Source of the DNA: Alphaproteobacteria bacterium
GTDB taxonomy: Bacteria > Pseudomonadota > Alphaproteobacteria > CAAHEQ01 > UBA3637
DNA length: 64,000 bases
Assembly (NCBI GenBank): GCA_045638265.1
Contig: JAZUBA010000051.1
Location: 30,194-94,193, forward strand
Direction of reading: 5' to 3'
How positions within the stretch are numbered: position 1 is the stretch's first letter; each line of letters begins with the position of its first letter. Below, one piece after another: positions 15,908-39,015 of the stretch. The translations under genes and the position numbers were made by a program. The notes under the pieces were generated by a model that had not been told where the DNA came from, did not search any database, and saw only the letters and a list, made by a program, of their open reading frames with translations.

Positions 15908-18391
15908 TTATTCATCTGTATCAGCAGTTGTAGTTGGTTTAATTGGGGCAAATGGTGCTTTTGATGGTGTTGGCATTGGTTTTATACCGGCAGGTGGTTG
16001 CATTTTGAAAGATGGAACACCTGTTGGCATTTTAGGCATATTACCTTTAGGAGGTAATGGAGCCGATTTAAAAAGAGGTTTGGCCGAAGGCATTTGTGGC
16101 ATACTGAACGACGGTGGTGTTGTTGGTATTGGCATCGGCATTGCAATAGGTGTCGGAATAGGATGGTTTTCTATTGGTGAAATATTTTGTTCTTCATTAT
16201 CGTAAAATTCTTCTTCTGTTTCTTCAATTATAGGTAAATCATCACCAAACAAGACTTCGTCCATTGTTGGTTCTTCATCAAAGTCGTTAATAACGGAAAG
16301 TTGGTCATCGGCAACCGGTTCTTCATCAAAGTCGTTAATGACAGAAAGTTGATCATCGGCAACCGGTTCTTCGTCAAAGTCGTTGATGACAGAAAGTTGA
16401 TCGTCGGCAATTGGTTCTTCATCAAAGTCGTTAATGACAGAAAGTTGATCATCGGCAACCGGTTCTTCATCAAAGTCGTTAATGACAGAAAGCTGATCAT
16501 CGGCAACTGGTTCTTCGTCAAAGTCGTTGATGACAGAAAGTTGATCATCAGCAATCGGTTCTTCATCAAAGTCGTTAATGACAGAAAGTTGATCGTCGGC
16601 AATTGGTTCTTCGTCAAAGTCGTTGATGACAGAAAGTTGATCGTCGGCAATTGGTTCTTCATCAAAGTCGTTAATGACAGAAAGTTGATCATCGGCAATC
16701 GGTTCTTCTTCTGTTGGCATGTCGTCAGGAAGAGCTTCAAATGTAACAGCCGGTTCTTCTTCTGTTGGCATATCGTCAGGAAGTGACTCAAATGTAACAG
16801 CTGGTTCTTCTTCTGTTGGCATGTCGTCAGGACGAGCTTCAAATGTAACAGCCGGTTCTTCTTCTGTTGGCATGTCGTCAGGAAGTGTTTCAAAGGCAAC
16901 AGCCGGTTCTTCTTCTGTTGGCATGTCGTCAGGAAGAGCTTCAAATGTAACAGCTGGTTCTTCTGTCGGCATATCGTCAGGAAGTGCTTCAAATGTAACA
17001 GCCGGTTCTTCTTCTGTTGGCATGTCGTCAGGAAGAGCTTCAAATGTAACAGCCGGTTCTTCTTCTGTTGGCATGTCGTCAGGAAGTTGTTCAAATGTAA
17101 CGGCTGGTTCTTCTTTTGGCATGTCGTCAGGAAGTTGTTCAAATGTAACGGCTGGTTCTTCTTCTGTTGGCATATCGTCAGGAAGTGTTTCAAATGTAAC
17201 AGCTGGTTCTTCTTCTGTCGGCATGTCGTCAGGAAGTGTTTCAAAGGCAACAGCCTGTTCTTCTTCTGTTGGTATATCGTCAGGAAGTGCTTCAAATGTA
17301 ACAGCCGGTTCTTCATCTGTCGGCATATCGTCAGGAAGTGTTTCAAAGGCAACAACTTGTTGTTCGGGTAACGTTTGTTCAGGAATTGAAGTTGTATCTG
17401 TTTGGGTTACAGCAACTGTTGGAACTGTAACCACTTGAACTTTTGCTTCAGCAATTTTATCAACAACAGATGTCATTAACCGTTCAACTGTACTGTTTTG
17501 AGCTTGCATCATTGAAGCAATTAAATTTTCCTGAGAAGCTTGCCATTTTGCAAAATCATCGGCAGAAAGAGTTGGAACAGGGGAAACGGATTGCCCGTTT
17601 TCGGGCATAACAACTGGTTGAGCTTGAACTTTTGCTTCGACAATTTTGTCAACAACAGATGTCATTAAACGTTCAACAGTATTATTTTGAGCTTGCATCA
17701 TTGAAGCAATTAAATTTTCCTGAGAAGCTTGCCATTTTGCAAAATCATCCGCAGAAAGAGTTGGAACAGGGGAAACGGATTCTCCGTTTTCAGTAACAAC
17801 AGTAGGTTGAGTAATACGCTCGGATATATGTTGCATATGGGATTGCATTTCTTTCAAAGTTTGTTGCATCATTTCCGTTTGTTGACGACTGTTTTCCTGC
17901 AAAACCGTTAATGCTTGTAATAATACTTCATATTGTTTGTTATCAGTTTGCGGAATAACAATTGGGGCTGAATCGCTACCGCTGGAAACAACAGAATTGT
18001 ATGGAACAAATGGCATATCTTCATCGGGTGAAGGTAAATAACCGCTTTTTGATTCTGTTTTGACAGAGCTGTTGCTTTCTTCAGTGTTTTCTTCTGTTGT
18101 ATCAGGTGTGTTATTTCCTTTGGCGGCGACTAAATATTCGTAATATTGACGTACAGTAGGTCCCCCGACAATATCATTCATCATCATACGCACATCATCA
18201 TCGGATGCTAACAGCATTTTGTTGTATTCAGCAACAAATTCTGGCTTTAACACATAGAGTTGGCGAAACATATTAACCAACTTTTGTGCAATAAGCATTA
18301 ATGTATTATCCTGCGTTTTTTTACGATGAATAAAACTATGTAATATTTTGCCGTCTTCGTCTAATTCCGTTGCGGTATCCATTTTTGCCAA
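15908..18391 (-). CDS. 827-aa acidic protein with three classes of tandem repeats and a Pro-rich C-terminus (hypothetical)
   Basis: 9 copies of EEPIADDQLSVINDFD (48 bp). About 13 copies of EEPAVTFE(A/T)LPDDMPT (45-48 bp). 2 copies of a 63-aa unit (PENGQSVSPVPTLSADDFAKWQASQENLIASMMQAQN.TVERLMTSVVDKI.EAKVQ). C-terminal PxxP-rich tail. Confidence 0.6.
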   Translation of the reverse strand: MAKMDTATELDEDGKILHSFIHRKKTQDNTLMLIAQKLVNMFRQLYVLKPEFVAEYNKMLLASDDDVRMMMNDIVGGPTVRQYYEYLVAAKGNNTPDTTEENTEESNSSVKTESKSGYLPSPDEDMPFVPYNSVVSSGSDSAPIVIPQTDNKQYEVLLQALTVLQENSRQQTEMMQQTLKEMQSHMQHISERITQPTVVTENGESVSPVPTLSADDFAKWQASQENLIASMMQAQNNTVERLMTSVVDKIVEAKVQAQPVVMPENGQSVSPVPTLSADDFAKWQASQENLIASMMQAQNSTVERLMTSVVDKIAEAKVQVVTVPTVAVTQTDTTSIPEQTLPEQQVVAFETLPDDMPTDEEPAVTFEALPDDIPTEEEQAVAFETLPDDMPTEEEPAVTFETLPDDMPTEEEPAVTFEQLPDDMPKEEPAVTFEQLPDDMPTEEEPAVTFEALPDDMPTEEEPAVTFEALPDDMPTEEPAVTFEALPDDMPTEEEPAVAFETLPDDMPTEEEPAVTFEARPDDMPTEEEPAVTFESLPDDMPTEEEPAVTFEALPDDMPTEEEPIADDQLSVINDFDEEPIADDQLSVINDFDEEPIADDQLSVINDFDEEPIADDQLSVINDFDEEPVADDQLSVINDFDEEPVADDQLSVINDFDEEPIADDQLSVINDFDEEPVADDQLSVINDFDEEPVADDQLSVINDFDEEPTMDEVLFGDDLPIIEETEEEFYDNEEQNISPIENHPIPTPIAMPMPIPTTPPSFSMPQMPSAKPLFKSAPLPPKGNMPKMPTGVPSFKMQPPAGIKPMPTPSKAPFAPIKPTTTADTDE
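16269..16700. repeat. 48-bp tandem repeat, 9 copies (encodes EEPIADDQLSVINDFD)
   Basis: Nearly identical 48-mers ggttcttcatcaaagtcgttaatgacagaaagttgatcatcggcaacc in direct tandem. Confidence 0.85.
16701..17360. repeat. 45/48-bp tandem repeat, ~13 copies (encodes EEPAVTFEALPDDMPT)
   Basis: Units ttcttcttctgttggcatgtcgtcaggaag.gcttcaaatgtaacagccgg repeated with minor variants. Confidence 0.85.
17434..17810. repeat. ~188-bp direct tandem duplication (2 copies)
   Basis: cttgaacttttgcttc.gcaattttatcaacaacagatgtcattaa.cgttcaac...gcagaaagagttggaacaggggaaacgga present twice back to back. Confidence 0.8.
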
Positions 18392-25795: not shown

Positions 25796-28700
25796 TTATT
25801 GACAATCTGAACTATCATCAGATCCGGCAACCGATGTTGTACCGCTCGGACACTTTAATGCGGTTGTCATTTTTGTTTCAGGACAATAATATCCTTTGGG
25901 ACAAATAGTTGCTGTTGTCATTGTTGTATTTGGACAATAATAACCGACAGGAGAATCTTCACAACTTGATTGACCTGTATTGGGATTAAATGTTCCTTTT
26001 TCACAAGCCTTACAGGCACTTGAAGTTGTTTGTTCTGTCATTGGATTATATTTGCCGGCCGGACAAGCAATCGGATAATCTGATTTTGCCGGACAGTAAA
26101 ATCCTTTTGGACATTTTTCTTGCATATCACCCTTACTGGCATCGGGACAAGTATATCCTGCTGTACAAGGAGTACAGGTAGTAGCTCCGACATCACTATA
26201 TGTTCCGGCACTACAAGGCCCTGCTGTTGATAAACCTGTTGTGGGACAATAATATCCTTTGGGACAAATAGTTGCTGTTGATAAACCTGTTGTGGGGCAA
26301 TAATATCCTTTGGGACAAGTTGTTGCGGAAGTTGCTCCTTCTAACGGACAGTAAGCCGTCATTGGACAAATGGTTCCTGCTGACATACCGGTTGAAGCAC
26401 AATAGGTGCCTGCTTCACATTTTTTACATGCAGATGAATTGTCTTGTCCTTCTTGATTGTTATATGTTCCTTTGGGACAAGATGTGCAATCTGTCTTGGC
26501 ATCAGATCCTGGATTTGAATTATACGTGCCAACCGGACAGGGTATTTGTTCAGCTGAACCAGTAGGACAATAAGTTCCTGCTTTACAAGTGATACACGCA
26601 TCAATACTGGTTGCTCTCTCTTTCGGATTGTATGTTCCTGCTTTACATTTTGTACAATAACTTACGCTTATTTGTCCTGTTTTGGTATTATATGTACCGG
26701 CAGGACAGGGTATTTTATCGGCTGAACCAGCAGGACAATAAGTTCCTGCATCACAAATTGTACATACATCAGCACTGCTTTGTCCTTCAGTCGGATTATA
26801 GGTTCCGGCTTTGCATTTTGTACAATAACTTACACTTGTTTGTCCTGTTTTGGTATTGTATGTTCCTGCTGGACAAGGTATTGGTTCAGCAGAGGCTGTT
26901 GGACAATAATGACCAATTTCACATTTTAAACAAGCTGTTGATTCTGTTGCTCCCTCTGTTGGATTGTAAGTTCCGGCTGGACAAGCTTTTTTTGTTTTTC
27001 CGACACAGTAATAGCCTTTTGGACAGGTGCCACTATCAGTAGAGCCTGCCTCACAATATGAATTTTCAGGACAAGGTTTACAAGATTCTAATCCTTCTTC
27101 ATCACCATAAGTACCTTCCGGACAAATAGTAGGTGTTTTGGATGTTTTGGGGCAATAATATCCTTTCGGGCAAATAATTTCTTCTGTTGTTTCTTTGGGG
27201 CAGTAATGTCCGGCGGTGCAGTTTTGACCACTAAACGTTGTAGACCCTTCCGGACAATAATATCCTGCCGGACAACTGCTTAGTTTGTGGATGTAGCCAC
27301 AATAAAATCCTACCGGACATTTTGCTTTAACCGTAGATCCGGCTGGACAATAATCTCCTTTTTCACAAGGCAAACAATCGGTTGTTGCACCTTTTCCTTC
27401 CTGTGAATTATAGGTGCTGTGAGGACAAACGGTTGCTGTTCCAACACCAGCAGGACAATAAGAACCGGCTGGACAAATAATCGGTTCAACAGATCCTTTC
27501 GGACAATAGTATCCTATTGGACAAGCTAAACAAGCCGATGAAGCAGTTGTTTTGTCATTTGGATTATATTTACCGGCAGGACAAGGCGTAACGGCTTTTG
27601 CTGTACAATAAGAACCTGCTGGACAAGTGATACATTCCGTTGCGCCTGTATTAGGGTTGTATGTACCGCTGGGACAAGTTAAACATGCTGTTGATTCCGT
27701 TGCGCCCATTGTTGGATTATATGTTCCTATTGGACAAGCTGTTTGTTTTGTCGCTGTACAATAATAACCGGCCGGACAAATGCCATTGGTAACGGAGCCT
27801 TCTGGACAGTAAGCATCAGCCGGACAGGTAATGCAATCAGTTTTAGAGGATTTTCCTTCATTGGGATTATAAGTGCCTGTTGGACATTTTGTTGCGCCTA
27901 AAAATGAATTTTCAGGACAATAATGACCGGCAGGACAAATAACAGGTTCTGTTTGATTGGTCGGGCAATAATAACCTGCAGCACAAGAACTTGCTTTTGC
28001 CATACAAATATCTGATCCAGGTATTTTTTTATAAAAATTAATATATAAATTACCGCTACCATGGTCGTATTCATTCGCCATTCTGATTCGGTGAATGCCT
28101 TTTTTTAAATCCAGAGAGAATGTTGTGCCTGTACGGGCATAATAAGAAACATCATCAATAATATATGTTAAACCTATATCTCCATCGGAAGATTTAATGC
28201 TCCCCTGGAAATCATAAGGCATAATGAATACAGAATCTTGGCAGTTGACTAAATTGGTAACATTTCGTTCGTGAGAGTTATAAAATTTGTTTGTGTAGAC
28301 ATATTGAGAATAATTATCACTATCCCAGCGAAATTTTTCACAGTAAATTGCCCGAATAGGAAAACCCATTTCATCGCAATCCAACTTTTGACAAGTGCGA
28401 TTATTGCAATAATAGTAATCGGCGCAATCATTATTTTCTAAACATTCTACACACACATTTTCATCTTCAACATAAATATAATTGTTAGGACAAACGCAAT
28501 CGCCGTTGATGAGTTGTCGTGGTGCGTCGCAAACACATTGAGGTTCTATGCAACTGCATTTTTTTAAAACATCATCGAATGTTAATGGTTCTTCACAACA
28601 CACACATTGGTCGTCAACTTCTTTGCAATCAGGTCCGCAAATGCATTTTTCCAAAGTTGCGTCGTATGTATTTGGTTCAGGGCAAGGTTGACATTTGCCG

Positions 28701-29674
28701 TTGATTAACTTTAACGGTTCTTTACAGATACATTGTTTGATTTTTTCATCATAATATTTATCAGATTCTTTAGCAACACATTTGCCGTCTTTTTTTTCTG
28801 CACAAGATGGGCAGTCAGGTACACATTCAGTACCGTCCCAAACTTCATTTTCATGACAAATAACACAATCTGTACCGTTATAATGAGCTTCATTCGGACA
28901 ACATTTGTTAATATCTACTTCCGTTTGACCTGTCGGACAAGCACATTTACCTTCTGATTCACTCCAACGAGTATAAGGTGCTGCATAGCAACATTCACAA
29001 ATGCCATTTCCTCGGTCACATTTTTGTTTACAGACACATTCTCCGTTGACAAGCACTTCATTTTTGATACAAGTATGTGGATCATCTAAATTGGGGTCAA
29101 TCGGAATATAAATTTTGTCGTCTGATGTGTCTGTTGGAATTGGTATTTTGAAATAAAATTCCATAGAAACATCGCCTTCTTCACCACAGTTTATTATATT
29201 GTCGGGTGACATTGTAATTCCTGTTTTGGCATCTTCATTATCAGAGGAGGCATACAAAGATTGACGCAATACAATTTTTTCGCAAACATCATGTGTTACG
29301 GTTGTTTTGATAACAAATTCTTTACAAACTCTGCCGTTATAACAAGGAACTTCTGACGAGGAAACACTGTTTTCTACATCAGCAATCGGTCCATTATTAA
29401 TGGCACGAACGAGTGTTGATTTACTGGCAACACGATAATCCGCTTCAACGGCAAGTTTGCCTTTCAACACGGTATCCATAATACTGGTAGCACGATATGT
29501 ATCAAATGCTGTTTTGTATCCGATAACACCGGCAATTGAGAACAAACCAATCAACACCAACACGCCTATCATTTCCACCATAGAACGTCCACACTCATGA
29601 AAGACTGATAATCGGGGGGTAAAAAGTGGTTGATATGTTTCTTTTGTAACGCTTTGATTTTGTTTGTTTTTCAT
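25796..29674 (-). CDS. Giant pilin-like protein, family member 2 (1292 aa): pilin-like N-terminus, ~150-aa domain shared with 29911, Cys-rich region, and C-terminal ~730 aa of ephrin-receptor/GCC2-GCC3-like CPxGxYC repeats
   Basis: ...ECG|RSMVEMIGVLVLIGLFSIAGVIGYKTAF... AGGAG SD. C-terminal half is dozens of CP(A/T/K)G(Y/T)YCP... and TAC..CP.GTYNP..GAT.ST.C..C units. Confidence 0.7.
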   Translation of the reverse strand: MKNKQNQSVTKETYQPLFTPRLSVFHECGRSMVEMIGVLVLIGLFSIAGVIGYKTAFDTYRATSIMDTVLKGKLAVEADYRVASKSTLVRAINNGPIADVENSVSSSEVPCYNGRVCKEFVIKTTVTHDVCEKIVLRQSLYASSDNEDAKTGITMSPDNIINCGEEGDVSMEFYFKIPIPTDTSDDKIYIPIDPNLDDPHTCIKNEVLVNGECVCKQKCDRGNGICECCYAAPYTRWSESEGKCACPTGQTEVDINKCCPNEAHYNGTDCVICHENEVWDGTECVPDCPSCAEKKDGKCVAKESDKYYDEKIKQCICKEPLKLINGKCQPCPEPNTYDATLEKCICGPDCKEVDDQCVCCEEPLTFDDVLKKCSCIEPQCVCDAPRQLINGDCVCPNNYIYVEDENVCVECLENNDCADYYYCNNRTCQKLDCDEMGFPIRAIYCEKFRWDSDNYSQYVYTNKFYNSHERNVTNLVNCQDSVFIMPYDFQGSIKSSDGDIGLTYIIDDVSYYARTGTTFSLDLKKGIHRIRMANEYDHGSGNLYINFYKKIPGSDICMAKASSCAAGYYCPTNQTEPVICPAGHYCPENSFLGATKCPTGTYNPNEGKSSKTDCITCPADAYCPEGSVTNGICPAGYYCTATKQTACPIGTYNPTMGATESTACLTCPSGTYNPNTGATECITCPAGSYCTAKAVTPCPAGKYNPNDKTTASSACLACPIGYYCPKGSVEPIICPAGSYCPAGVGTATVCPHSTYNSQEGKGATTDCLPCEKGDYCPAGSTVKAKCPVGFYCGYIHKLSSCPAGYYCPEGSTTFSGQNCTAGHYCPKETTEEIICPKGYYCPKTSKTPTICPEGTYGDEEGLESCKPCPENSYCEAGSTDSGTCPKGYYCVGKTKKACPAGTYNPTEGATESTACLKCEIGHYCPTASAEPIPCPAGTYNTKTGQTSVSYCTKCKAGTYNPTEGQSSADVCTICDAGTYCPAGSADKIPCPAGTYNTKTGQISVSYCTKCKAGTYNPKERATSIDACITCKAGTYCPTGSAEQIPCPVGTYNSNPGSDAKTDCTSCPKGTYNNQEGQDNSSACKKCEAGTYCASTGMSAGTICPMTAYCPLEGATSATTCPKGYYCPTTGLSTATICPKGYYCPTTGLSTAGPCSAGTYSDVGATTCTPCTAGYTCPDASKGDMQEKCPKGFYCPAKSDYPIACPAGKYNPMTEQTTSSACKACEKGTFNPNTGQSSCEDSPVGYYCPNTTMTTATICPKGYYCPETKMTTALKCPSGTTSVAGSDDSSDCQ
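29375..29593. repeat. Inverted repeat arm (5' coding region of the minus-strand pilin-like gene), ~95% identical to 30001..30220
   Basis: Reverse complement of this segment matches 30001..30220 almost base for base (e.g. gacgttctatggtggaaatgataggcgt.ttggtgttgattggtttgttc...gatacaaaacagcatttgatacatatcgtgctaccagtattatggatac). Confidence 0.7.
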
Positions 29675-29709
29675 ATGCTTCTCCTAATGCTGAAATAATC
29701 CTAATCCCA

Positions 29710-29737
29710 TTGTAATTAAACGTACCTTTATTTGCAA
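29710..29737 (-). promoter_or_regulatory. Promoter/operator module for 25796..29674 (minus-strand reading: -35 TTGCAA, spacer ATAAAGGTACGTTTAAT, -10 TACAAT)
   Basis: Ends 36 bp upstream of the ATG at 29674. Same module as the other family promoters. Confidence 0.65.
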
Positions 29738-29840
29738 CGATTTCACCAAAAATCCACTTTTTACGCTAATATGACAATAACCATAAGAAACCTGCCGTTA
29801 GATAAAAATAAAAAAAAATGCAAAAAAGTGAAAAAAATTG

Positions 29841-29868
29841 TTGCAATTTAACGTACCTTTAATTACAA
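29841..29868 (+). promoter_or_regulatory. Promoter/operator module for 29911..39015 (-35 TTGCAA, spacer TTTAACGTACCTTTAAT, -10 TACAAT)
   Basis: Ends 42 bp upstream of the ATG. Preceded by the conserved block ATGCAAAAAAGTGAAAAAAATTGT (29818..29840), also present upstream of 52175. Confidence 0.65.
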
Positions 29869-29910
29869 TCATATTAGCTATGATTATTATGTTAAAAAAA
29901 AGGGGTTTTT

Positions 29911-32900
29911 ATGTTTAACATATTTAAAAATAAAGATTTTTTGTGTTTTAATGCCGATTCGGAAAATGCTCAAAGCAAATCGGATATGACAACCAAACAG
30001 GAATGTGGACGTTCTATGGTGGAAATGATAGGCGTATTGGTGTTGATTGGTTTGTTCACTATTGGCGGCGTTGTCGGATACAAAACAGCATTTGATACAT
30101 ATCGTGCTACCAGTATTATGGATACAGTGTTGAAAGGCAAACTTGCCGTTGAAGCGGATTATCGTGTTGCTGGCAAATCAACGCTTGTTCGTGCGATTAA
30201 TAACGGACCAATTGCCGATGTAAATGATAAAGTGGAATATTATACCGAGGTTGCTTGTGGTAATCGCCAATGTAAAGAATATGTTATTAAAACCAAAGAA
30301 CCGGCTGGTGTTTGTGAAAAAATTGTATTGCGTCAGTCTTTATATAATTCTTCCGATGAATCCGATAATACCCCTGAAATTTATATAACCCCGAATAATA
30401 TAGAGGATTGCGGAGAAGAGGGTGAAGTAGATATGACATTTACTTTTCAAATACCCATGCTAAAAGCGGGAGATGGCAGTGATGTATATGAACCGGTTGA
30501 CGGTACCTTGCAAGAATCTACTTGTCCCGCCGGACAAATTATTATAGATGGTGTTTGTCAGTGTAGACCGGCGTGTGATAGGGGAGAGGGTGTTTGTGTT
30601 TGTTGTAATACGGGATATGAATATGATAATGAGACAAAGTCTTGTATTTGCCCTGCCGGTACACATGATACCGGCAGTGACTGTATTACGTGCGAAAATG
30701 GTACAAAATGGGATGAAACTAAAAAACAATGTGAAAACCCTTGTACAGATGGTAAAATCTGGAACGGTACGACTTGTATAGACCTTTGTTCAGGCGGAAA
30801 AGAATGGGATAGTTCAGCCAATACCTGTGTTTGTCCGGAAGGGACAAATGATAACGGAGAAAGTTGTGTAACGTGTTCAGCTCCGAAAACACATTGGGAT
30901 AACGAACTTAATAAATGTACTTGTCCGACGGGATTTGTTGAACGAAACGGAACGTGTGAACGCAAACCGACTTGCACAGAACCACGAACAGTTTATGATG
31001 AAGCAAGCAATACGTGTCAATGTCCGTCAGAAAGACCGGAATATGATGAAGATAAGAATACATGTAATTGTCCGGAGGCAACACCTTATTGGGATTCAAC
31101 AAAAAATCAATGCGTTACTTGTGTTGTAGGTAACAGTAATACACCGGTTTGGAATGGAACAAGCTGTGTCAGTTGTGCGGGTGCGGATAATACAAAACCT
31201 TATTGGAATGGTACGGAATGTATCAGTTGTTATGCTAATAATCCAACAACCCCTTATTGGAATGGTACAAATTGTACGACTTGTCCGAATACAACACCGG
31301 TATGGAATGGGACGGCTTGTGTCAGTTGTGCAGAAGCCGATAGTACAAAACCTGTTTGGAATAGTACGGAATGTGTGGCTTGTCCGACAGAAACGCCGTA
31401 CTGGAACGGAACAAGCTGTGTCAGTTGTTACGATAATAATCAAACAACACCGTATTGGAATGGTACAAATTGTACAGTATGTCCGGATGCTAAATTGTGG
31501 AATACGGAATCAAACCAATGTGTTCAATGTTTAGATAACGAAAATTGTAGTGGTTCAACGCCTGTTTGTAATGATAATAATGTGTGTGAATCTTGTCCGG
31601 ATGTAATGCCTATTTGGCATACGGATATGAAACAATGCGTCCAATGTTTAGAAAATGAAGATTGTAATGATAACGCAACTCCTGTTTGTAATAATAGCAA
31701 TATGTGTGAATCTTGTCCGGATGCAATGCCTGTTTGGCATACGGATATGAAACAATGTGTTCAATGTTTGGAAAATGCTGATTGTCCGACAGGAACACCT
31801 GTTTGTAACGCCACGAACGCTTGTGAACCATGTCCTGATGAAACACCAATTTGGGTAGCAGAAACAGGTAAATGTATTGCCAGCGATGGTCCGAGTGGAG
31901 ATGGTTCTTGTAATGACAACAGCGATTGCAGTGTGGGCGAATATTGTGATATTACAACATGGGGAACAAGTAAAGACTATTGTACGACAGATACAAGCAA
32001 TATGAGTGGTACATGCCGAAATGCAACTGATGATATCCAATCACCGAATAGTGGCACAACCCCAGCATTTGTAATATCCAACAGACCAATGTATTGGTGG
32101 AGTGCCAATAATTTCTGTCAGGCCTTGGGTAAAGTATTGGCAGAAGTAAGCGATTTTGAATGTGCTCATACAATTTGTCCGGAATGTTCATCAGGAACTT
32201 GTCCGGACGGATGTGATGGTTATTATGGCTATTGTCATCAAGATGATTCATTGGGATTAACAACAAGTGATGGTGTTAACATATCTCCAATCGTTGTTCA
32301 AATGACTAATGCCTACGGAAATTTATGGGGTTGGTTAAATACAAAATATAATGATTGTATGGCATATGATATCAGTTTGCAAAGCGGGGAAGTTAATCGC
32401 TATAACAGAAAGGGTACAAACCCAGCTATTTGTAAAGACCGACCATCCTGTCCAATTGAAACACCGTATTGGAATGGCACAGAATGTACAACTTGTCCAA
32501 TTGAAACACCGTATTGGAACGAAGAAACGGATCAATGCGAAGTTTGTCCGGCTGAAACACCGATTTGGGACGGTACAACATGTATTGAGGGTTATGTTTG
32601 TAAAGGTACTACAAGCGAATGTCAAACAAATAATGATTGTACTCAATTGTATGGTAGTGGATATTATTGTAATATAGAATGTTTTACTGATCATTGTTCA
32701 ACAGAAACGACAAGTCTTGGTGGTTCATGCCGTAAAGCAATTAGTGACGTCAAAGAACCAAACTCAGGAACAACTCCCCCGTTTGTGATGTCCAGTGAGA
32801 AAATGTATTGGTGGAGTGCGAAGAACTTCTGTCAGGCATTGGGACAACGTCTTGTAGATGTAACCGATTACGAATGTGCACATGCAATTTGTCCTGATGA

Positions 32901-35900
32901 TAATTGTGATAATGCATGGGGTTTTTGTCATGCAGATACATCACATAGCGTAGTTGGTGGAAATACAACTAATATATCTGCCAAAATAGCTGCAATGAAA
33001 GAGGCTTATGGCTCTTATTATTGTTGGGTGGATATGGATTATAATTCTTGTAGACCGTATTTTACTAATTTCAACCAAGGACTTGTAACTTTTGGTTATA
33101 GAAATAACAGATATTACGCTGTATGTGAATCTGTTTGCGAAGGCGATACCCCTGTTTGGAACGGTACGGCTTGCGAAGCATGTCCGACGGGAACACTCTG
33201 GAATGAAGCAACAGGTGAATGTGTTGCTGCTCTTTGTAAAGGTGTTGTATATGAATGTAATGACAATGCCGATTGTGATGCAGGTGAATATTGTAATATT
33301 ACATGTTATAATGATACTTGTACGAAAGATACGAGTGGTATGGGGGGAACTTGTCAAAATGCAAATGAACGCATTCAACCACCCGAGAATGGAACGAAAC
33401 CACCGTTTATAATGTCAAATCAACCAATGACATGGTGGAATGCAAATAATTTTTGTGAGGCATTAGGTACAACACTTGTAGAGGTCAGTGATTATGCATG
33501 TGCACATAGTATATGTCCAAGCGGATGTGACGCTACATATGGTTATTGTCATGCGGATCCATCGCAATCAGTGACATTATCCTTTGCCACAAATGATCGA
33601 ACAGCGAAACTACAAGCGATGTATGAAGCCTATGGTAGTAATATTAGTTATGGGTGGACAAATACGGATACTGACGACCTTTGTTACGCATATAACGTTA
33701 GCTTCTATCAAGGTGGTATGTTTAATGGTCTTCGGTATAGTAGCGTTGTTAATGCTGTATGTAAACCAGATTGTGCAGCGACTGATGTAACAAAACCATA
33801 TTGGACAGGTACATCTTGTGAAGCTTGTCCGACAGATACATTTTGGGATGCAGAAAAAGGCGAATGTGTTGACATGCCAATTTGTGTGTTGAATAATTGT
33901 CGCTGGACCGGTTGGATAGATAGATCTCAGCCGGAAAGTGATAATACTGGTGGTGACTATGAAACATTAGATGGTCTTTGTGTAAGTGGTAAAATACAAA
34001 ATATTTCTTGTCGTTCAGTGTGGTTCCCGAATACATCTCTTGATGATTTGGATCAAGTTCTTGAAAGCTGCGATACAGTAAATGGTTTAGTTTGTCTTAA
34101 TGAGAAAAATTATGTTTCTGAACCAGGAGGGCCTAGACCTCCGGGTATGGCTTGTTACAATTATGAAATCAATGTTTTTTGTTGTAGTAATTGTAAAGAA
34201 TGTACGGCCAATACAGATTGTCCTGGTGATTACCCATATTGCGATAGTGGTGTTTGTATGCCGTGTCCAACGGGAACACCTGTTTGGAACGGAACATCTT
34301 GTGAAGCTTGTCCAATGGCAACACCGATTTGGGATTCTGAATTAGGTCAGTGTGTCACTTGTGCCGAAGCCGATAGCACAAAACCAGTTTGGAACGAAGA
34401 AACGAACCAATGTGAGGCTTGTCCTACTGAAACTGTTTGGGATGATGAAGCAGGAGTATGTATCGTACAACAGTGTAAGGGGGTTGTATATGCCTGTAAT
34501 GATAACAATGATTGTGGTGCAGGAGAATATTGCGATATAACATGCTATGATAATCATTGTACGGAAGATATGAGTGGTATGGGTGGAACATGTCGGAACG
34601 TACAAGATGATTTAAATGATAAGTCAGAAGAGGAACCATTCTGGGTTTCGGATAGATATATGAATTGGTGGAGTGCTAAAAACTTCTGTCAAGGGTTAGG
34701 GAAACAAATGATATCCCTTGATGATTTAGAGTGTGCACATCCAATGGAGCTTCATGGATATTGTCATGAAGATACATCAACAGATGTTATTTATTATAAT
34801 CCATTAAACATATCAGACAAAGTATCGAGAACATTTAATGCTTACGGTTCTATTTGGGGCTGGATGGAAAGTGATAGCTATGCTCCTGACAATTGTTATA
34901 CTCGTATGGTTAATTTTAGTAATGGATACGTTCGGTTCCATTTGAGATATATTGTTGGCGGATACGCTATTTGTAAAGACCGACCTGCTTGCCCGACAGA
35001 AACACCGTATTGGGATGGTTCAGTTTGTGTAGCCGAATGCCCGAGTGATAAGCCTGTAATTGGTGAAAACAACGTTTGCGAAGCCTGTCCAGCTGATAAA
35101 CCTGAGTGGACAGGTACAGAGTGTATATATTGTCCTGATACATCTACATGGGATGAAGAATGGAATGCTTGTACATTTACGATTGAATTGGAATCTTATT
35201 CTGCATGTAATAATGATTGTGGGGCTTCGCAGGTTGTAGAAAAATTTTCAGTAAGCAATTTAGAAGCATCGTATGATACTTATTTTACAGGATATGCTGA
35301 CGACTGGTTCTGGATTTGTGAATCATATTTAAGTAATTTAGATCCGAAAAATGAATGTATGAAATACAAATATAATATGGGCTTGAGAGCAGGCGGAACC
35401 AAAACAAACATGTTTATGGGTATAACTTATGCAGGAGAAGGAGCTACAAAAGGATATTGGCACTCATATCAAGGTATTATGAGAATTAATGGAACAATGA
35501 CGTTTGTTTATAATCCAGATATTAAAATGGGAGAATATTGTCCGGTTGGTTATTATTGCTCGTCGGATGGTAACTCAGTTGCAACACAGTGTATAAATGA
35601 AACCATTACAGAAAATATTGCTGAAACTGATTGTCACGTTTGTGATATCCGTTTCTGGAGAGAGGATGATGGTTCTTGTATCTACTGTGAAACTGAAGAT
35701 ACTCAAACCAAGATTGAACAATCCGAATGTAATCGTTGTACAAATAGATTCTGGAAGGATAATAACTATTGTTACCATTGTTCAATTTCGGGAGTGCAAT
35801 CAGGTATCATGCAAAATGAATGTGAACGGTGTAGCAATAGATATTGGCTTGAAACAAATGCAGAAACACATATTGGTTCTTGTACTCTCTGTCCGGATGG

Positions 35901-38900
35901 ATTGACACGGGATAATGCAACAGGGCTTTGTGTTTGTGATGAAGGATTGGTTTTCAATCTTGGTACTAAAAAATGTGTCTCCTGTACCGAAACAACGGGA
36001 AATTTCTCATCAACAGAATTGTCAACGGAACAAAGCTGTCCAGCAACACGATTCTATGCAAATGATGAAAAATCATATTTGTGTAGTGGCACGGGAACAT
36101 ATCCAGTAACAACAGAAGAAAACTGTATGGTTTGCGGTGATGATGTAAATCGTTTCTGGAAGAGTAAAAATGGCTATTGTATCAGTTGTAATTATTCCAC
36201 AGCTGTTGCAGAAACAACCAAAGAAGAATGTTTAACTTGTGTTAACAGATATTGGACAGAAACCAATGCGACAACAGGGATTGGTAAATGTACGAAATGT
36301 GCTGTTGGTCAAGTAGTCAATGCTGATGGTACGGCTTGTGTCAGTTGTGCAGAAGCAGACAGCACAAAACCGGTTTGGAATGGTACGGCTTGTGTCAGTT
36401 GTGCAGAAGCTGATAGCACAAAACCAGTCTGGAATGGCACGGCTTGTGAAGCATGTCCGACGGACAAACCTACTTGGAGTGGTACAGAGTGTTATAACGA
36501 AGCAACAGCACAAAATTGTCAAACAGCGATGACATCAGCCGGATTTAGCACTTCCAAATTCACAATGGATGGAACAACTATTAAATACACAGGCGATATG
36601 ACTCTTTCAAAAGATTTGGATATTTCAGCTTGTAATTTAGATGTTGTCGGTACATTAAAGGTAAATTCGGGTAAAACATTGAAAGTTAATAATGTCAAAG
36701 CTGAAAGTACTGGTATTTATAGCATATTTAACAGCGGCACAATTGAAGTAACAAATATAACGGGAATAGCAACGGGAACAGCATCTTATGGCATCCATAA
36801 TACTTCTGGCACAATAGAAGCAACGGGTGATGTGATGGGAACGGGAACTGCTACTGGTATAAATAACTATGGTGCAATAACAGCAACAAATGTGACGGGA
36901 TCGGGATCGGCTTATGCTGATGGCATCTCTAACGTTGGCACAATAACAGCAACGGGCGATGTCACTGGAACGGGAAATTATGGCATCTATAACAATAGGT
37001 CAGGCAAAATAACAGCAACAAATGTGACGGGAACGGGAATTGGAACTAATGGCAATGGTTCTGGCATTCAGAACACTGGCACAATAGAAGCAACAGGCGA
37101 TGTGACGGGAACAGGAACAGGAGTTTTTTATGGCATCTATAATTCTGGCACAATAGAAACAAGGGATGAAGTGACGGGAACAGGAAATCAATATGGTATC
37201 ATGAATACTGGCACATTAGAAACAACAGGTGATGTGACGGGAACTTCAACGGGAACAGGAAGCTATGTTTATGACATATCTAACAGTGGCACAATGTCTG
37301 CAATTAATGTTTACTATTGTAGAGCGATTAAAAATACTGGCAAAATCATTGGTCATATCCAATGTAAATGTCCTGAAGGCATGTCATGTCCGGCAACAAC
37401 AATTACACAATGTACGGCACCGACACCAGTCTTGTCAGGCAATTTGACAACTTGTGTGGCTTGTGCAACGGCAGACAGCACAAAACCAAACTGGAATGGT
37501 ATGACTTGTGAAGCATGTCCGACAGAAACTCCTGCTTGGAACGGCACGGCTTGTGAAACATGTCCTGCAGAAACTCCTGTTTGGAACGGCACGACTTGCG
37601 AATCTTGTCCGTCGGGTACGTCTTGGAGTGGTACAGAATGTATTGATATGAATGCGTTCAATTGTCAAACAGCGATGACCTCGGCTGGATTTAGTACTTC
37701 TAACTTTACAATGGAAGGAACAACCATTAAATACACTGGTGATATGACTGTTGCAACAGATTTAGATATTTCGGGCTGTAACTTGGATGTTGCCGGTACG
37801 TTAACGGTTAATGGTACTTTGGAAGTTAATAATATCAATGCAGAAAGTTCCGGTGATAAAGGTATTGATAACTATGGTAGAATAATTGCAACAGGTAACA
37901 TCACGGGAACGGGAACCAGTGAGGGTGTATATAATAATGGTGGACAAATTGAAGCACAAAATATTACAGGAACGGGAACCAACTATGATGGTATATATAA
38001 TGCTGGTGCTATGGATGCTCAAAATATTACAGGAACCGGCGGTATGTATGGTATAGAGAACTTTGGTGGTTTTATAACAGTAACAGGAGATATCTCTGGA
38101 ACGGGAAATTATGATGGCATCTATAACTGGATTGGCACAATGTCTGCAACAAATGTTTATTATTGTCAAACGATTAACAGTACTGCTGGTCAAATTATAG
38201 GTAATGTTGCTTGTGGATGTTCTGATAGTTCAAGTTGTACGTCAGACGTAATGCAATGTACTGCGCCGACACCAATTTTGATAGGTCTTGAATCTTGTAT
38301 CAGTTGTGCAGATGCTGATAGTACAAAACCATATTGGAATGGTACGTCTTGCGAAGCATGTCCGACGGACAAACCTACTTGGAATGGAACAGAGTGTGTT
38401 AATGAAGAAATAATAGCACAAAATTGTCAAACAGCGATGACATCAGCCGGATTTAGTACTGATGACTTCACAATGGACGGTATAACCATTAAATACACAG
38501 GCTATATGATTGTTTCAACAGATTTGGATATTTCTGCTTGTAATTTAGATGTTGACGGCACGTTAATTGTTAATTCAGAAACGACATTGAAAGTTAATAA
38601 TGTCAAAGCTGAAGGTGAAGGTTCAGACCGTGGCATCAGTAACTATGGAGGCACAATCAAAGCAACAAATGTGATGGGAAGTGGTAATAATTTTGGCATC
38701 TATAATGGTGAAAGAGGCACAATAGAAGCAACAAATGTGACGGGAACGGGAACCAATGTTAATGCTGATGGCATCTCTAACGATGGCACAATCAAAGCAA
38801 CTGGCGATGTAACGGGAACGGGAACGGGAACTGATAGTAAAGGCATTAATAACGATGGTACAATAACAGCAACAGGTGATGTGACTGGAATAGGAAATGA

Positions 38901-39015
38901 TTTTTTTGGCATCGATAATGATGGCACAATAACAGCAACAAATGTTTATTATTGTGCAACGATTTATAATAGTGGAACAATTAATGTAACGCCTCAATAC
39001 TTGTGTCCTCAATAA
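29911..39015 (+). CDS. Giant pilin-like protein, family member 3 (3034 aa): pilin-like N-terminus, shared ~150-aa domain, WNGT-rich Cys repeats, four C-type-lectin-like modules, EGF/CxC-rich regions, three C-terminal beta-helix-like TGTG-repeat units
   Basis: ...ECG|RSMVEMIGVLVLIGLFTIGGVVGYKTAF... Uninterrupted 9105-nt ORF. Repeats CxxCP..TP.WNGT.C x~40. Modules with YWWSA.NFCQALG...ECAH...GYCH...AYG...WGW...A(I/V)CK x4. Three units starting QNCQTAMTSAGFST and filled with (I/V)TGTG..YGI.N.GTI.AT repeats. Confidence 0.7.
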   Translation: MFNIFKNKDFLCFNADSENAQSKSDMTTKQECGRSMVEMIGVLVLIGLFTIGGVVGYKTAFDTYRATSIMDTVLKGKLAVEADYRVAGKSTLVRAINNGPIADVNDKVEYYTEVACGNRQCKEYVIKTKEPAGVCEKIVLRQSLYNSSDESDNTPEIYITPNNIEDCGEEGEVDMTFTFQIPMLKAGDGSDVYEPVDGTLQESTCPAGQIIIDGVCQCRPACDRGEGVCVCCNTGYEYDNETKSCICPAGTHDTGSDCITCENGTKWDETKKQCENPCTDGKIWNGTTCIDLCSGGKEWDSSANTCVCPEGTNDNGESCVTCSAPKTHWDNELNKCTCPTGFVERNGTCERKPTCTEPRTVYDEASNTCQCPSERPEYDEDKNTCNCPEATPYWDSTKNQCVTCVVGNSNTPVWNGTSCVSCAGADNTKPYWNGTECISCYANNPTTPYWNGTNCTTCPNTTPVWNGTACVSCAEADSTKPVWNSTECVACPTETPYWNGTSCVSCYDNNQTTPYWNGTNCTVCPDAKLWNTESNQCVQCLDNENCSGSTPVCNDNNVCESCPDVMPIWHTDMKQCVQCLENEDCNDNATPVCNNSNMCESCPDAMPVWHTDMKQCVQCLENADCPTGTPVCNATNACEPCPDETPIWVAETGKCIASDGPSGDGSCNDNSDCSVGEYCDITTWGTSKDYCTTDTSNMSGTCRNATDDIQSPNSGTTPAFVISNRPMYWWSANNFCQALGKVLAEVSDFECAHTICPECSSGTCPDGCDGYYGYCHQDDSLGLTTSDGVNISPIVVQMTNAYGNLWGWLNTKYNDCMAYDISLQSGEVNRYNRKGTNPAICKDRPSCPIETPYWNGTECTTCPIETPYWNEETDQCEVCPAETPIWDGTTCIEGYVCKGTTSECQTNNDCTQLYGSGYYCNIECFTDHCSTETTSLGGSCRKAISDVKEPNSGTTPPFVMSSEKMYWWSAKNFCQALGQRLVDVTDYECAHAICPDDNCDNAWGFCHADTSHSVVGGNTTNISAKIAAMKEAYGSYYCWVDMDYNSCRPYFTNFNQGLVTFGYRNNRYYAVCESVCEGDTPVWNGTACEACPTGTLWNEATGECVAALCKGVVYECNDNADCDAGEYCNITCYNDTCTKDTSGMGGTCQNANERIQPPENGTKPPFIMSNQPMTWWNANNFCEALGTTLVEVSDYACAHSICPSGCDATYGYCHADPSQSVTLSFATNDRTAKLQAMYEAYGSNISYGWTNTDTDDLCYAYNVSFYQGGMFNGLRYSSVVNAVCKPDCAATDVTKPYWTGTSCEACPTDTFWDAEKGECVDMPICVLNNCRWTGWIDRSQPESDNTGGDYETLDGLCVSGKIQNISCRSVWFPNTSLDDLDQVLESCDTVNGLVCLNEKNYVSEPGGPRPPGMACYNYEINVFCCSNCKECTANTDCPGDYPYCDSGVCMPCPTGTPVWNGTSCEACPMATPIWDSELGQCVTCAEADSTKPVWNEETNQCEACPTETVWDDEAGVCIVQQCKGVVYACNDNNDCGAGEYCDITCYDNHCTEDMSGMGGTCRNVQDDLNDKSEEEPFWVSDRYMNWWSAKNFCQGLGKQMISLDDLECAHPMELHGYCHEDTSTDVIYYNPLNISDKVSRTFNAYGSIWGWMESDSYAPDNCYTRMVNFSNGYVRFHLRYIVGGYAICKDRPACPTETPYWDGSVCVAECPSDKPVIGENNVCEACPADKPEWTGTECIYCPDTSTWDEEWNACTFTIELESYSACNNDCGASQVVEKFSVSNLEASYDTYFTGYADDWFWICESYLSNLDPKNECMKYKYNMGLRAGGTKTNMFMGITYAGEGATKGYWHSYQGIMRINGTMTFVYNPDIKMGEYCPVGYYCSSDGNSVATQCINETITENIAETDCHVCDIRFWREDDGSCIYCETEDTQTKIEQSECNRCTNRFWKDNNYCYHCSISGVQSGIMQNECERCSNRYWLETNAETHIGSCTLCPDGLTRDNATGLCVCDEGLVFNLGTKKCVSCTETTGNFSSTELSTEQSCPATRFYANDEKSYLCSGTGTYPVTTEENCMVCGDDVNRFWKSKNGYCISCNYSTAVAETTKEECLTCVNRYWTETNATTGIGKCTKCAVGQVVNADGTACVSCAEADSTKPVWNGTACVSCAEADSTKPVWNGTACEACPTDKPTWSGTECYNEATAQNCQTAMTSAGFSTSKFTMDGTTIKYTGDMTLSKDLDISACNLDVVGTLKVNSGKTLKVNNVKAESTGIYSIFNSGTIEVTNITGIATGTASYGIHNTSGTIEATGDVMGTGTATGINNYGAITATNVTGSGSAYADGISNVGTITATGDVTGTGNYGIYNNRSGKITATNVTGTGIGTNGNGSGIQNTGTIEATGDVTGTGTGVFYGIYNSGTIETRDEVTGTGNQYGIMNTGTLETTGDVTGTSTGTGSYVYDISNSGTMSAINVYYCRAIKNTGKIIGHIQCKCPEGMSCPATTITQCTAPTPVLSGNLTTCVACATADSTKPNWNGMTCEACPTETPAWNGTACETCPAETPVWNGTTCESCPSGTSWSGTECIDMNAFNCQTAMTSAGFSTSNFTMEGTTIKYTGDMTVATDLDISGCNLDVAGTLTVNGTLEVNNINAESSGDKGIDNYGRIIATGNITGTGTSEGVYNNGGQIEAQNITGTGTNYDGIYNAGAMDAQNITGTGGMYGIENFGGFITVTGDISGTGNYDGIYNWIGTMSATNVYYCQTINSTAGQIIGNVACGCSDSSSCTSDVMQCTAPTPILIGLESCISCADADSTKPYWNGTSCEACPTDKPTWNGTECVNEEIIAQNCQTAMTSAGFSTDDFTMDGITIKYTGYMIVSTDLDISACNLDVDGTLIVNSETTLKVNNVKAEGEGSDRGISNYGGTIKATNVMGSGNNFGIYNGERGTIEATNVTGTGTNVNADGISNDGTIKATGDVTGTGTGTDSKGINNDGTITATGDVTGIGNDFFGIDNDGTITATNVYYCATIYNSGTINVTPQYLCPQ
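30001..30220. repeat. Inverted repeat arm (5' coding region of the plus-strand giant gene), partner of 29375..29593
   Basis: See partner arm. Together they flank a ~410-bp spacer containing both promoters. Confidence 0.7.
36510..39012. repeat. Three tandem, diverged, in-frame repeat units (~1140, ~760, ~590 nt), each starting QNCQTAMTSAGFST...
   Basis: Unit starts at ~36510, ~37655, ~38420 with >85% nt identity over the first ~150 nt. Each unit ends with VYYC..I.N. Confidence 0.7.

Follow-up and report, generated by a model that had tools for sequence, protein, structure and literature searches.

Two genes encoding modular pilin-like proteins lie head-to-head in the window, i.e. the whole 64-kb stretch of DNA that was analysed. 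P1 (1292 aa) is encoded on the minus strand at 25796..29674 and P2 (3034 aa) on the plus strand at 29911..39015, each by an uninterrupted ORF recognised from its translation. P2 is identical to P0004, a database protein with NCBI as its listed source. The region between them (29701..29877, not assigned to a strand) contains mirrored 43-nt elements at 29701-29743 and 29835-29877, supported by consensus matches only. Each element carries TTGCAA-17-TACAAT, one being directed into P1 and the other into P2. An invertible-promoter switch between the two genes was considered and rejected: because each gene is preceded by its own mirrored promoter-like copy, inversion of the intergenic region would change little. 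A tRNA and Rfam scan of the 64-kb window returned nothing useful for its placement.

Pilin modules and Cys-rich repeats of P1 and P2

Both proteins start with a pilin module of about 170 residues. It is located at 29105..29617 on the minus strand in P1 (aa 20-190; 146 bits with a local HMM derived from profile A4) and at 29977..30492 on the plus strand in P2 (aa 23-194). After a leader, the module continues with the motif G|RSMVEM and a long hydrophobic helix, and then with a small, four-stranded globular part. The class-III-like signal of P1 has the junction G29|R30 and the P2 N-terminus has G33|R34, both with a Glu at +5. With a leader that ends in Gly and some 20 hydrophobic residues behind it, the N-termini have the features of the class III signal of type IV pilins. 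The Gly, Arg, Ser and Glu(+5) residues are invariant in 27 aligned N-termini. An Arg at +1 is unusual for a pilin signal. Profile A4 matched type IV pilins of the PDB (fimbrial protein, TcpA, PilA), in alignments that keep the register of the mature N-terminus, and the fold predicted by modelling is that expected of a pilin, with a beta-sheet against which the long N-terminal helix packs. By structure as well as by profile, the pilins matched are of type IVb. The pilin scaffold proposed in a preliminary description, made from the sequence alone, is upheld by the conserved signal and by these profile and predicted-fold matches.

The N_methyl and TIGR02532-type prepilin models of Pfam/NCBIfam gave no match at E <= 1, either with the whole proteins or with their N-terminal segments. 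Proteins of the P1/P2 type are not detected by standard pilin models and are therefore invisible to InterPro-based surveys. The pilin motif is carried by four window ORFs, making four pilin-like paralogues in 64 kb, and many are present per lineage. The two ORFs other than P1 and P2 displayed no Pfam domain, even in a tiled scan. The 64-kb window and the neighbour loci L010 and L013 showed none of the filament machinery looked for: prepilin peptidase, assembly ATPase, platform protein and secretin. Signal processing and display of P1 and P2 on a filament are inferred.

The C-terminal part of P1 (aa 564-1292, 729 aa; 25799..27985, minus strand) is an uninterrupted array: about 41 half-units, each 16-20 aa long and of one of two types, CPxGxYCP or CPxGTYNPxxGxxxxxxCxx. 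The array region contains 84 Cys in 738 aa, and the form CxxGxY[CN] is found in 31 of the 41 half-units, which meets the criterion of regular Cys spacing. The Pfam model PF07699 (GCC2_GCC3/Ephrin_rec_like) scored 67.3 bits on the whole of P1 and 104.1 bits (E 3.2e-30, 12 stretches) on aa 555-1292, for a gathering cut-off of 23.1 bits. A weak direct match to the EphB2 ectodomain was also obtained. The array is a member of the GCC2_GCC3/Ephrin_rec_like family. Both earlier claims concerning P1, a continuous Cys-rich array over the C-terminal ~730 aa and its assignment to GCC2_GCC3, were confirmed, the second by a Pfam score above the PF07699 threshold.

In P2, short Cys-rich repeats with the pattern C..C....P.WNGT.C come after the pilin module (30553..31896, plus strand; repeat families D1, D3 and D8), and additional copies are dispersed through the protein. 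Their only Pfam matches, to DUF4215 and Myxo_Cys_RPT, were sub-threshold. The C-terminus consists of three repeats of about 280 aa each (36493..39012, plus strand; repeat families D2, D4, D6 and D7) rich in G(I/V)xNxGTIxATGDVTGTG units. Neither this threefold repeat nor the region around aa 1750-1880 of P2 had a Pfam or PDB sequence match, and no similarity was detectable between the two. A stretch equivalent to the latter region is present in P1 at aa 430-560.

CTLD-fold modules and a mucin CysD domain in P2

Four modules with a C-type-lectin-like domain (CTLD) fold, each with a Cys-rich knot of some 35 aa in front of it, are located on the plus strand of P2. Including the knot, they span 31897..32439 (core 32008-32439), 32611..33132 (core 32722-33132), 33235..33768 (core 33346-33768) and 34468..34980 (core 34585-34980). 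The cores measure 132-144 aa, and the knot brings the length to 171-181 aa. Identity between the modules is 44-52%, and their alignment, knot included, contains 41 invariant columns, among which M.WW.A.NFC..LG, CAH, G.CH.D, AYG, W and A.C in the core. The knot motif C.DN.DC..GEYC[DN]IT is exact in three of the four copies, the second being the variant CQTNNDC...GYYCNIEC.

The structure of module 3 was modelled with AF2 (pLDDT 83, pTM 0.80). The predicted model meets the criterion for a CTLD fold, i.e. a strand, two helices, then strands, with CTLDs as the nearest structures; a Foldseek search of the PDB with this model gave weak E-values but all top matches were CTLDs. A conserved Cys/His-rich insert, CAH...GYCH.D, is placed between the two helices. 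Searching the PDB with a profile of 50 module sequences gave C-type lectin domains in 33 of 36 matches, aligned on the W..A...C...G..L motif, whereas a profile of the four P2 sequences returned noise only. The matches of the larger profile are called weak because their E-values range from 2e-4 to 2.4.

At the level of sequence families, Pfam searched at E <= 10 returned only noise for the four modules and no Lectin_C (PF00059) match, and none of 50 family members matched Lectin_C at E <= 1. Weak matches to Lcl_C/DUF1566 (PF07603) were seen in four of these 50 members (best E 0.0075), none of them in the window modules, and to Xlink in three, all below threshold. Motifs associated with calcium and sugar binding are scarce in 59 family modules: WND and QPD are absent from all 59 and EPN occurs in two. 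The EPN of a window module sits in its N-terminal segment, out of register with the calcium/carbohydrate site. Beyond the last Trp there remain a median of 36 residues, forming short-turn strands, and this short stretch was read as the absence of a long loop. The P2 modules are compact CTLDs at the fold or superfamily level, devoid of canonical calcium/sugar motifs and outside Pfam Lectin_C. Glycan binding is not implied for modules lacking these motifs. Since Lectin_C does not match and the family is bacterial, neither lectin activity nor a eukaryotic origin of the modules is shown.

The modules belong to a new, previously undescribed family of bacterial pilin-associated CTLD-fold domains comprising at least 315 cluster representatives and frequently linked to pilins. 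The pilin motif was present in 50 of the 152 family sequences examined, many of the others being fragments. Most full-length modules (91/124) end five residues or fewer from the protein C-terminus, the position of an exposed end module. The size of the family was revealed by an exhaustive HMM search, far more sensitive than a word-indexed protein search, which recovered only three homologues. The preliminary description had placed four C-type-lectin-like modules of ~200 aa at nt ~32010, 32730, 33340 and 34580, each behind a small Cys knot. The positions agree with the cores to within a few bases and the knots are confirmed, with the variant noted above. The lectin-like assignment holds at the fold or superfamily level, the PF00059 HMM check being negative, and the length was overestimated.

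An additional domain, absent from the preliminary description, lies between the third and fourth modules. Residues 1326-1426 of P2 (33886..34188, plus strand) form a mucin CysD (WxxW) domain. PF13330 (Mucin2_WxxW) matches this segment over profile positions 1-88 of 88 with 52.5 bits (E 8.1e-14), and scores 48.1 bits in a 360-aa tile, for a gathering cut-off of 22.4 bits. In phmmer, the domain is 44% identical to that of Mucin-2 (8s03_A; E 1.1e-18), and the CysD of a strain variant reaches 50.5% identity to Mucin-2 CysD (E 1e-31). The CxWTGW motif is present as CRWTGW and the Cys columns align with those of MUC2, MUC5B and MUC5AC. At the sequence level, the conserved cysteines of the five-disulfide CysD domain are present. 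In a small tree, bacterial CysDs cluster with one MUC2 CysD type. A word-indexed protein search found nothing for the CysD, whether the query was one sequence or an alignment. The whole-protein Pfam scan of P2 likewise gave zero matches and PF13330 surfaced only with segments or tiles; that a 52-bit domain can be overlooked in a whole-protein scan and found when the segment is scanned alone is a methodological warning.

Strain variation, proposed function and alternatives

Comparison of strains shows the P1/P2 locus to be a mosaic hot spot. A strain with 97% identical flanks carries a single giant of 2070 aa replacing P1 and P2, with a different module order, and the region of CTLD-fold module 2 is 97% identical at the DNA level to L010 13608-14352. 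The same architecture was found again in independent samples (P0005, P0078, L012). A recent transfer visible in base composition was rejected: with GC3 values of 0.22 for the CysD and 0.21 for the GCC array, both regions are at the level of housekeeping genes (0.24-0.29). Relatives sit in genome bins of uncultured Alphaproteobacteria, one of which has a rabbit-derived name. A neighbouring locus encodes pyruvate formate-lyase, which is consistent with an anaerobe.

The reading that we favor, by a modest margin, is that P1 and P2 are giant modular type IVb-like pilins by which the cell adheres to mucus or to a host. The domain identities and the mosaicism of the locus are shown; the function, the ligands and the host are inferred, and there are no binding data. 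The pilin module would insert the proteins into a type-4 filament or at its tip, or would at least anchor them in the envelope. The disulfide-rich repeats, i.e. the GCC2_GCC3 array of P1 and the C..C..P.WNGT.C repeats of P2, would form stalks pushing the binding modules out from the cell. In P2, the putative binding modules are the four compact C-type-lectin-like-fold domains and the single mucin-type CysD. The latter may dock on mucin CysD domains by the kind of non-covalent contact that mucin CysDs make among themselves, and the CTLD-fold modules may bind other ligands, protein or glycan, via a calcium-independent surface. The bacterium would thereby be fastened to mucus or to a glycoprotein surface of an animal host. 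The host mimicry suggested in the preliminary description is strengthened by the presence of a mucin CysD 44-50% identical to that of Mucin-2, although binding remains an inference. Running counter to the pilin-adhesin reading, the 3034 aa of P2 far exceed the 860 aa of the most extreme multi-domain pilin of an InterPro survey (PMC8179133).

A bolder reading can be formulated, which is less likely than not. A vertebrate MUC2-type CysD would have been captured by a probably gut-associated Alphaproteobacterial lineage, grafted onto type IVb-like pilins and used to plug into the host mucus network via the CysD-CysD cross-linking of mucin, the same proteins carrying the undescribed CTLD-fold family and being reshuffled between strains. 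If true, this would be an animal-to-bacterium domain transfer by which a 'molecular mimic' anchors the cell in mucus. How commensals are retained in mucus is an open question, and the presence of mucin's own cross-linking domain on a bacterial protein points to a possible new anchoring mechanism that is directly testable.

Among the alternatives, the one that survives best, and remains possible, is that P1 and P2 are surface or envelope proteins outside any pilus. Their pilin-like N-terminus would only be an export signal or a membrane anchor (e.g. a relic of a T2SS-type pseudopilin) and the proteins would form a fibrillar coat or matrix. In its favor, no filament machinery was found near any copy inspected, the number of paralogues in the window and per lineage is above that usual for pilins, P1 and P2 are extremely large and standard pilin HMMs do not match them. 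Against it, the signature of Gly, Glu(+5) and hydrophobic helix is strictly conserved, the predicted fold and the profile matches point to genuine pilins, and the globular pilin domain, superfluous for a mere anchor, is kept.

A second, unlikely alternative is that the target is not an animal host but other cells (gut protists, other bacteria, prey), the CTLD-fold and GCC2_GCC3 modules having the role that such modules play in protist surface proteins or in a protein of the Bdellovibrio Bd2740 type. GCC2_GCC3 repeats are plentiful in the surface proteins of protists. The window also encodes mTERF and Sel1 proteins, a typical trait of bacteria that live alongside eukaryotic cells. Against this alternative, the nearest relative of the bacterial CysD is one vertebrate MUC2 CysD type; moreover, according to one paper on CysD, descriptions of the domain are confined to animal mucin-type proteins and it is traced to early Bilateria, which points to animal mucus.

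Two further explanations are all but excluded. The eukaryote-like parts could be an artefact, i.e. a chimeric assembly with host DNA or a chance Cys-rich similarity, given that host mucin DNA does turn up in metagenomes (L011) and that Cys-rich repeats attract spurious matches; however, the modules lie within uninterrupted ORFs of 1292 and 3034 aa with GC3 at the housekeeping level, their architecture recurs in independent samples and the HMM scores surpass the curated cut-offs by a factor of 2-4. Variable proteins of diversity-generating retroelements usually have the CTLD fold as their scaffold, but a reading of the P2 modules as such variable regions was rejected, with no reverse transcriptase domain among the window ORFs scanned and no template/variable repeat pair in the window, the module copies having in common only 96 nt, at 65-80% identity.

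Comparison with known systems

The preferred reading, P1 and P2 as modular pilin adhesins, rests on an established concept, that of modular pilins with grafted adhesive modules (PMC8179133). These grafted modules are not pilus-specific, and exposure at the tip of the filament is presumed for them (PMC8179133). With Streptococcus sanguinis PilB (vWA module) and PilC (lectin module), ETEC CofB and Vibrio cholerae TcpB, P1 and P2 share an N-terminal pilin module bearing grafted binding modules; CofB and TcpB are minor pilins of type IVb pili, to which the P1/P2 pilin-module matches also belong. Contrary to described modular pilins, which measure about 400-860 aa, P1 and P2 reach 1292 and 3034 aa and have many modules in series, their N-terminus is not recognised by IPR012902/N_methyl-type models and no machinery genes were found nearby. 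GCC2_GCC3, compact CTLD and mucin CysD are not among the module examples given in the relevant sections of PMC8179133. The modular-pilin concept is in this way extended to multi-kilobase, bead-on-a-string subunits.

The CTLD-fold modules share their compact fold with the C-terminal domain of Bdellovibrio Bd2740, the C-terminal domain of Legionella Lcl (Lcl_C/DUF1566), the D-terminal domains of intimin and invasin and the animal Link module, without any significant sequence match to them. In common with the bacterial compact CTLDs, they have a short region after the WIGL-equivalent strand, no canonical calcium site and a placement at the adhesin end. Unlike all of these, they possess their own CAH...GYCH.D insert and their own preceding Cys knot, and they define a new bacterial structural family of the CTLD fold.

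The P1 array has in common with ephrin receptors, SCUBE and protist surface proteins an above-threshold PF07699 match and the CxxGxY Cys spacing. It differs from the eukaryotic GCC2_GCC3 proteins in being bacterial, in running without interruption for an unusual length (729 aa) and in its fusion to a pilin module.

Finally, the P2 CysD shares with those of MUC2, MUC5AC and MUC5B a full-length HMM match, the CxWTGW motif and the Cys positions throughout. MUC2 CysD forms non-covalent dimers (PMC3195396) and added CYS domains become integrated into mucus (PMC6861317). In contrast with mucins, the P2 domain is carried by a bacterial pilin-like protein, is flanked by Cys-rich repeats or T/E-rich linkers instead of glycosylated PTS regions, and has a fully bacterial codon composition.

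The GCC2_GCC3 array and the mucin CysD domain

The two giant pilin-like proteins P1 (25796..29674, minus strand, 1292 aa) and P2 (29911..39015, plus strand, 3034 aa) are encoded head to head with 236 bp between them and are rich in cysteine (10.1% and 7.9%, respectively). The C-terminal part of P1 (aa 564-1292, nt 25799-27985, minus strand), delimited from the translation, the unit list and PF07699, consists of some 41 half-units in an array without breaks. Each half-unit is 16-20 aa long and follows the pattern CPxGxYCP... or CPxGTYNPxxGxxxxxxCxx, and a count over 738 aa gave 84 cysteines. Whole P1 matches a single Pfam family, PF07699, now named Ephrin_rec_like (E 9.8e-19, 67.3 bits for a cut-off of 23.1 bits, 12 stretches), and the array scanned alone reaches 104.1 bits (E 3.2e-30). 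The scores of TNFR_c6 and NCD3G on the array were far under their cut-offs in the Pfam scan. The only PDB match found by phmmer was the EphB2 ectodomain, at a weak E-value of 0.0038. The array belongs to the GCC2_GCC3/Ephrin_rec_like family; this assignment, already made in the preliminary description, held in the Pfam check with a score well above the cut-off. No comparable array occurs in any other protein collected with the C-type lectin-like domain (CTLD) modules of P2 (33 core motifs in P1, at most 4 in the next best).

P2 contains a mucin CysD domain (aa 1326-1426, nt 33886-34188, plus strand) that was absent from the preliminary description. It covers model positions 1-88 of 88 of PF13330, Mucin2_WxxW (E 8.1e-14, 52.5 bits, cut-off 22.4). 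This match was missed by the whole-protein Pfam scan, found on the segment alone and confirmed by a tile scan. Against the PDB, phmmer retrieved Mucin-2 (8s03_A, E 1.1e-18, 44% identity), then other MUC2, MUC5B and MUC5AC CysD structures. P0005, the giant protein of a variant locus on a contig from another sample (L010), has a CysD that aligns with the same Mucin-2 domain over 95 residues without gaps (E 1.3e-31, 50.5% identity), including WTGWLDSGKP and NYEI.V.CC. A third copy is found in the 508-aa protein P0078, whose pilin module is followed by a T/E/D-rich linker, the CysD, a knot and a CTLD; its stored Pfam annotation is likewise PF13330. The fourth copy, on contig L012, is broken. There, the span 5053-6290 holds a bacterial pilin-like ORF that continues through a T/E-rich linker into a CysD with two interruptions, a TGA in the very position of the Trp in CRWTGW and a frameshift inside seven consecutive G. 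This may be a pseudogene, a phase-variable tract or an error of sequencing, and we do not decide among them.

CysD domains were described in animal mucin-type proteins and their appearance was traced to early Bilateria (Lang et al., PMC4948705); no report of a bacterial CysD was found in the literature searched. In a neighbour-joining tree of 9 sequences (200 bootstraps), the four bacterial domains cluster with the MUC2-8s03 type and a host mucin fragment, apart from MUC2-6tm6, MUC5B and MUC5AC (split in 87.5% of bootstraps). Their identities are 47-59% to the former group and 34-46% to the latter. With so very small a sample, this grouping is indicative only. The mucin fragment lies at 1-1666 of a metagenome contig (L011), with its CysD between Thr/Pro/Ser (PTS) repeats and 59% identical to that of P0005. 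The CysD and the GCC2_GCC3 array have GC3 values of 0.22 and 0.21, level with those of housekeeping genes (0.24-0.29), and therefore any transfer was not recent.

The CTLD-fold modules of P2

The cores of the four modules start at nt 32008, 32722, 33346 and 34585, share 44-52% pairwise identity with 41 invariant alignment columns, and each has a Cys knot, about 35 aa long, in front of it. The preliminary description was right about the four modules and their knots and wrong about their length, given as about 200 aa and measured at 132-144 aa, or 171-181 aa when the knot is counted. Even with a limit as permissive as E <= 10, the modules matched no Pfam model. When their profile was run exhaustively against 1.84 billion cluster representatives, 315 proteins scored E <= 1e-3, and 86 reached E <= 1e-10. 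One local iteration yielded 124 full-length modules in 105 proteins, the C-terminus lying at most 5 residues from the module end in 91 of the 124. A pilin-like N-terminus as in P1 and P2 is present in 50 of the 152 family sequences examined, many of the remainder being fragments. Specific to the family are the knot in front of the module and, between the helices, an insert rich in Cys and His, CAH..C..GC....GYCH.D. In species-representative genomes, the relatives come almost entirely from uncultured Alphaproteobacteria bins, one with a rabbit-derived name.

The AlphaFold2 model of module 3 (pLDDT 83.2, pTM 0.80, 7-sequence alignment) runs strand, helix, short helix, insert, helix and four strands, with lower confidence in the insert (pLDDT 68-72). 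Its top Foldseek ranks are exclusively CTLDs, yet weak (E >= 0.015, TM 0.35-0.5). When a 50-sequence module profile was compared with PDB sequences, 33 of the 36 matches at E <= 10 were C-type lectin domains, aligned on the strand-1/helix-1 motif f..s..mtW.eA..fC...g..L.s; with best E-values of 2.3e-4 to 3.6e-3, this support is weak but consistent. Single members gave sub-threshold matches to two CTLD-fold families, Lcl_C (4/50) and Xlink (3/50). WND and QPD were found in none of the 59 family modules checked and EPN in two, the case in a window module being out of register in the N-terminal segment. Because the last Trp is followed by no more than about 36 residues, as short-turn strands, the modules are read as lacking the long loop region (Ca2+/sugar site). 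They are thus predicted, with weak profile support, to form a new bacterial family of compact CTLD-fold domains, often linked with pilin-like proteins. They fall outside Lectin_C, and a eukaryotic origin is not demonstrated. The earlier term C-type-lectin-like holds at the fold level only, and the label eukaryote-like is demonstrated for GCC2_GCC3 and above all CysD, not for these modules.

Other repeats were observed in P2. Scattered over 30553-38400 are 22 P.W(N/D/T/S)...C units by regular-expression count, many of them P.WNGT.C with an N-x-T sequon to which no meaning is assigned for a bacterium. The C-terminus carries three repeats, each about 280 aa long (36493-39012, plus strand), which are made of G(I/V)xNxGTIxATGDVTGTG units and each close with (V/I)YYC. 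They match neither Pfam nor the PDB; a beta-solenoid is possible, on composition only.

Pilin-like N-termini in a variable locus

P1, P2 and the ORFs 4542-7529 and 52175-54469 share the motif leader-G|RSMVE(M/I)(L/I)GVLA..G.LS; its G, R, S and Glu at +5 do not vary among 27 aligned N-termini. Standard pilin models did not match the N-termini of P1 and P2. An N-terminal profile found type IV pilins as best PDB matches with the mature N-terminus in register (fimbrial protein 3.6e-4, TcpA 4.9e-4, PilA 4.7e-3, CFA/III pilin 0.053). The AlphaFold2 model of P2 aa 27-215 (pLDDT 82) has a 49-residue N-terminal helix; the small part that follows combines helix with four strands. The long leaders, and a +1 residue other than Phe, are likewise consistent with type IVb pilins. 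The pilin-like scaffold proposed earlier is hence supported moderately but coherently, by inference from sequence and by model prediction; cleavage is inferred. No pilus assembly genes were found in the window or the two neighbour loci inspected (L010 and L013). The products of 4542-7529 (995 aa) and 52175-54469 (764 aa) are also Cys-rich and have no recognisable Pfam domain, tile scans included; the latter is made up of long internal repeats with C..C.NR... units.

The other window genes (MnmE, YidC with periplasmic domain, DnaJ, MutY, ClpB-like ATPase, QueA, MlaA/MlaC neighbours) fit an ordinary diderm chromosome. The 5' ends of P1 and P2 are mirror images (29375-30222), with a 225-nt inverted repeat, 92% complementary, spanning the pilin-module coding region and mirrored upstream 43-nt elements each carrying TTGCAA-17-TACAAT. 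On L010, the left flank is 97% and the right flank 93-97% identical to the window. Between the same flanking genes, the 2070-aa P0005 alone (L010 10001-16213) stands in place of window 25796-39015 and P1 is absent. Its modules run CTLD-CysD-CTLDx3 and are accompanied by two C-terminal repeats, against CTLDx3-CysD-CTLD and three repeats in P2, and conservation is only patchy (for instance module 2 at 97%). Same flanks, a different giant and patchy conservation lead us to read the locus as a mosaic recombination hot spot, which matches the expectation for exposed, selected surface proteins.

Three further features of the window were noted. An ORF run at 46549-51451, kept in L010, has mTERF domains (PF02536) with clear matches at 47397-48707, 48709-50151 and 50153-51451; the mTERF family is typical of eukaryotic organelles. 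A Sel1-repeat protein (2724-3734, 5 repeats, E 3.7e-47) represents a domain type common in host-associated bacteria. A tandem-repeat region (16351-17365) inside the Cys-free ORF 15908-18391 (827 aa, no Pfam match) aligns with L010 in several registers, shifted by about 48-51 nt, and its identity of 74-88% is low beside the 97% of the flanks.

Proposed function and alternative readings

Beyond the domain identities, all is inference, from cleavage and display on a filament to the ligands and the host. The reading with the best support, held as somewhat more likely than not, takes P1 and P2 for giant modular type IVb-like pilins. The pilin module would be the carrier, the disulfide-rich repeats would form stalks and the CTLD-fold and CysD modules would act as binding heads, in the absence of binding data. 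MUC2 CysD domains dimerise non-covalently (PMC3195396) and added CYS domains integrate into mucus and tighten it (PMC6861317), so that docking of the bacterial CysD onto mucin CysDs is conceivable, again without binding data.

It remains possible that the pilin module is used only as an anchor, without any pilus role. Targets other than the host, such as protists or other bacteria, are backed by a Bd2740-like fold match and appear unlikely. An artefactual origin of the eukaryote-like parts was rejected as virtually ruled out, given the housekeeping-level GC3 of the CysD and the array and the presence of CysD in P0005 and P0078. A diversity-generating retroelement (DGR) reading of the CTLD modules was likewise rejected, with hardly any doubt, as the scanned window ORFs gave no reverse transcriptase domain and no template/variable repeat pair is present.

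The preliminary observation is confirmed and its interpretation supported, with the caveats on the two terms. A MUC2-type CysD in bacteria is apparently unreported in the literature searched. Modular pilins and bacterial CTLDs are already known in kind, the modular pilin concept being established for much smaller proteins (PMC8179133).
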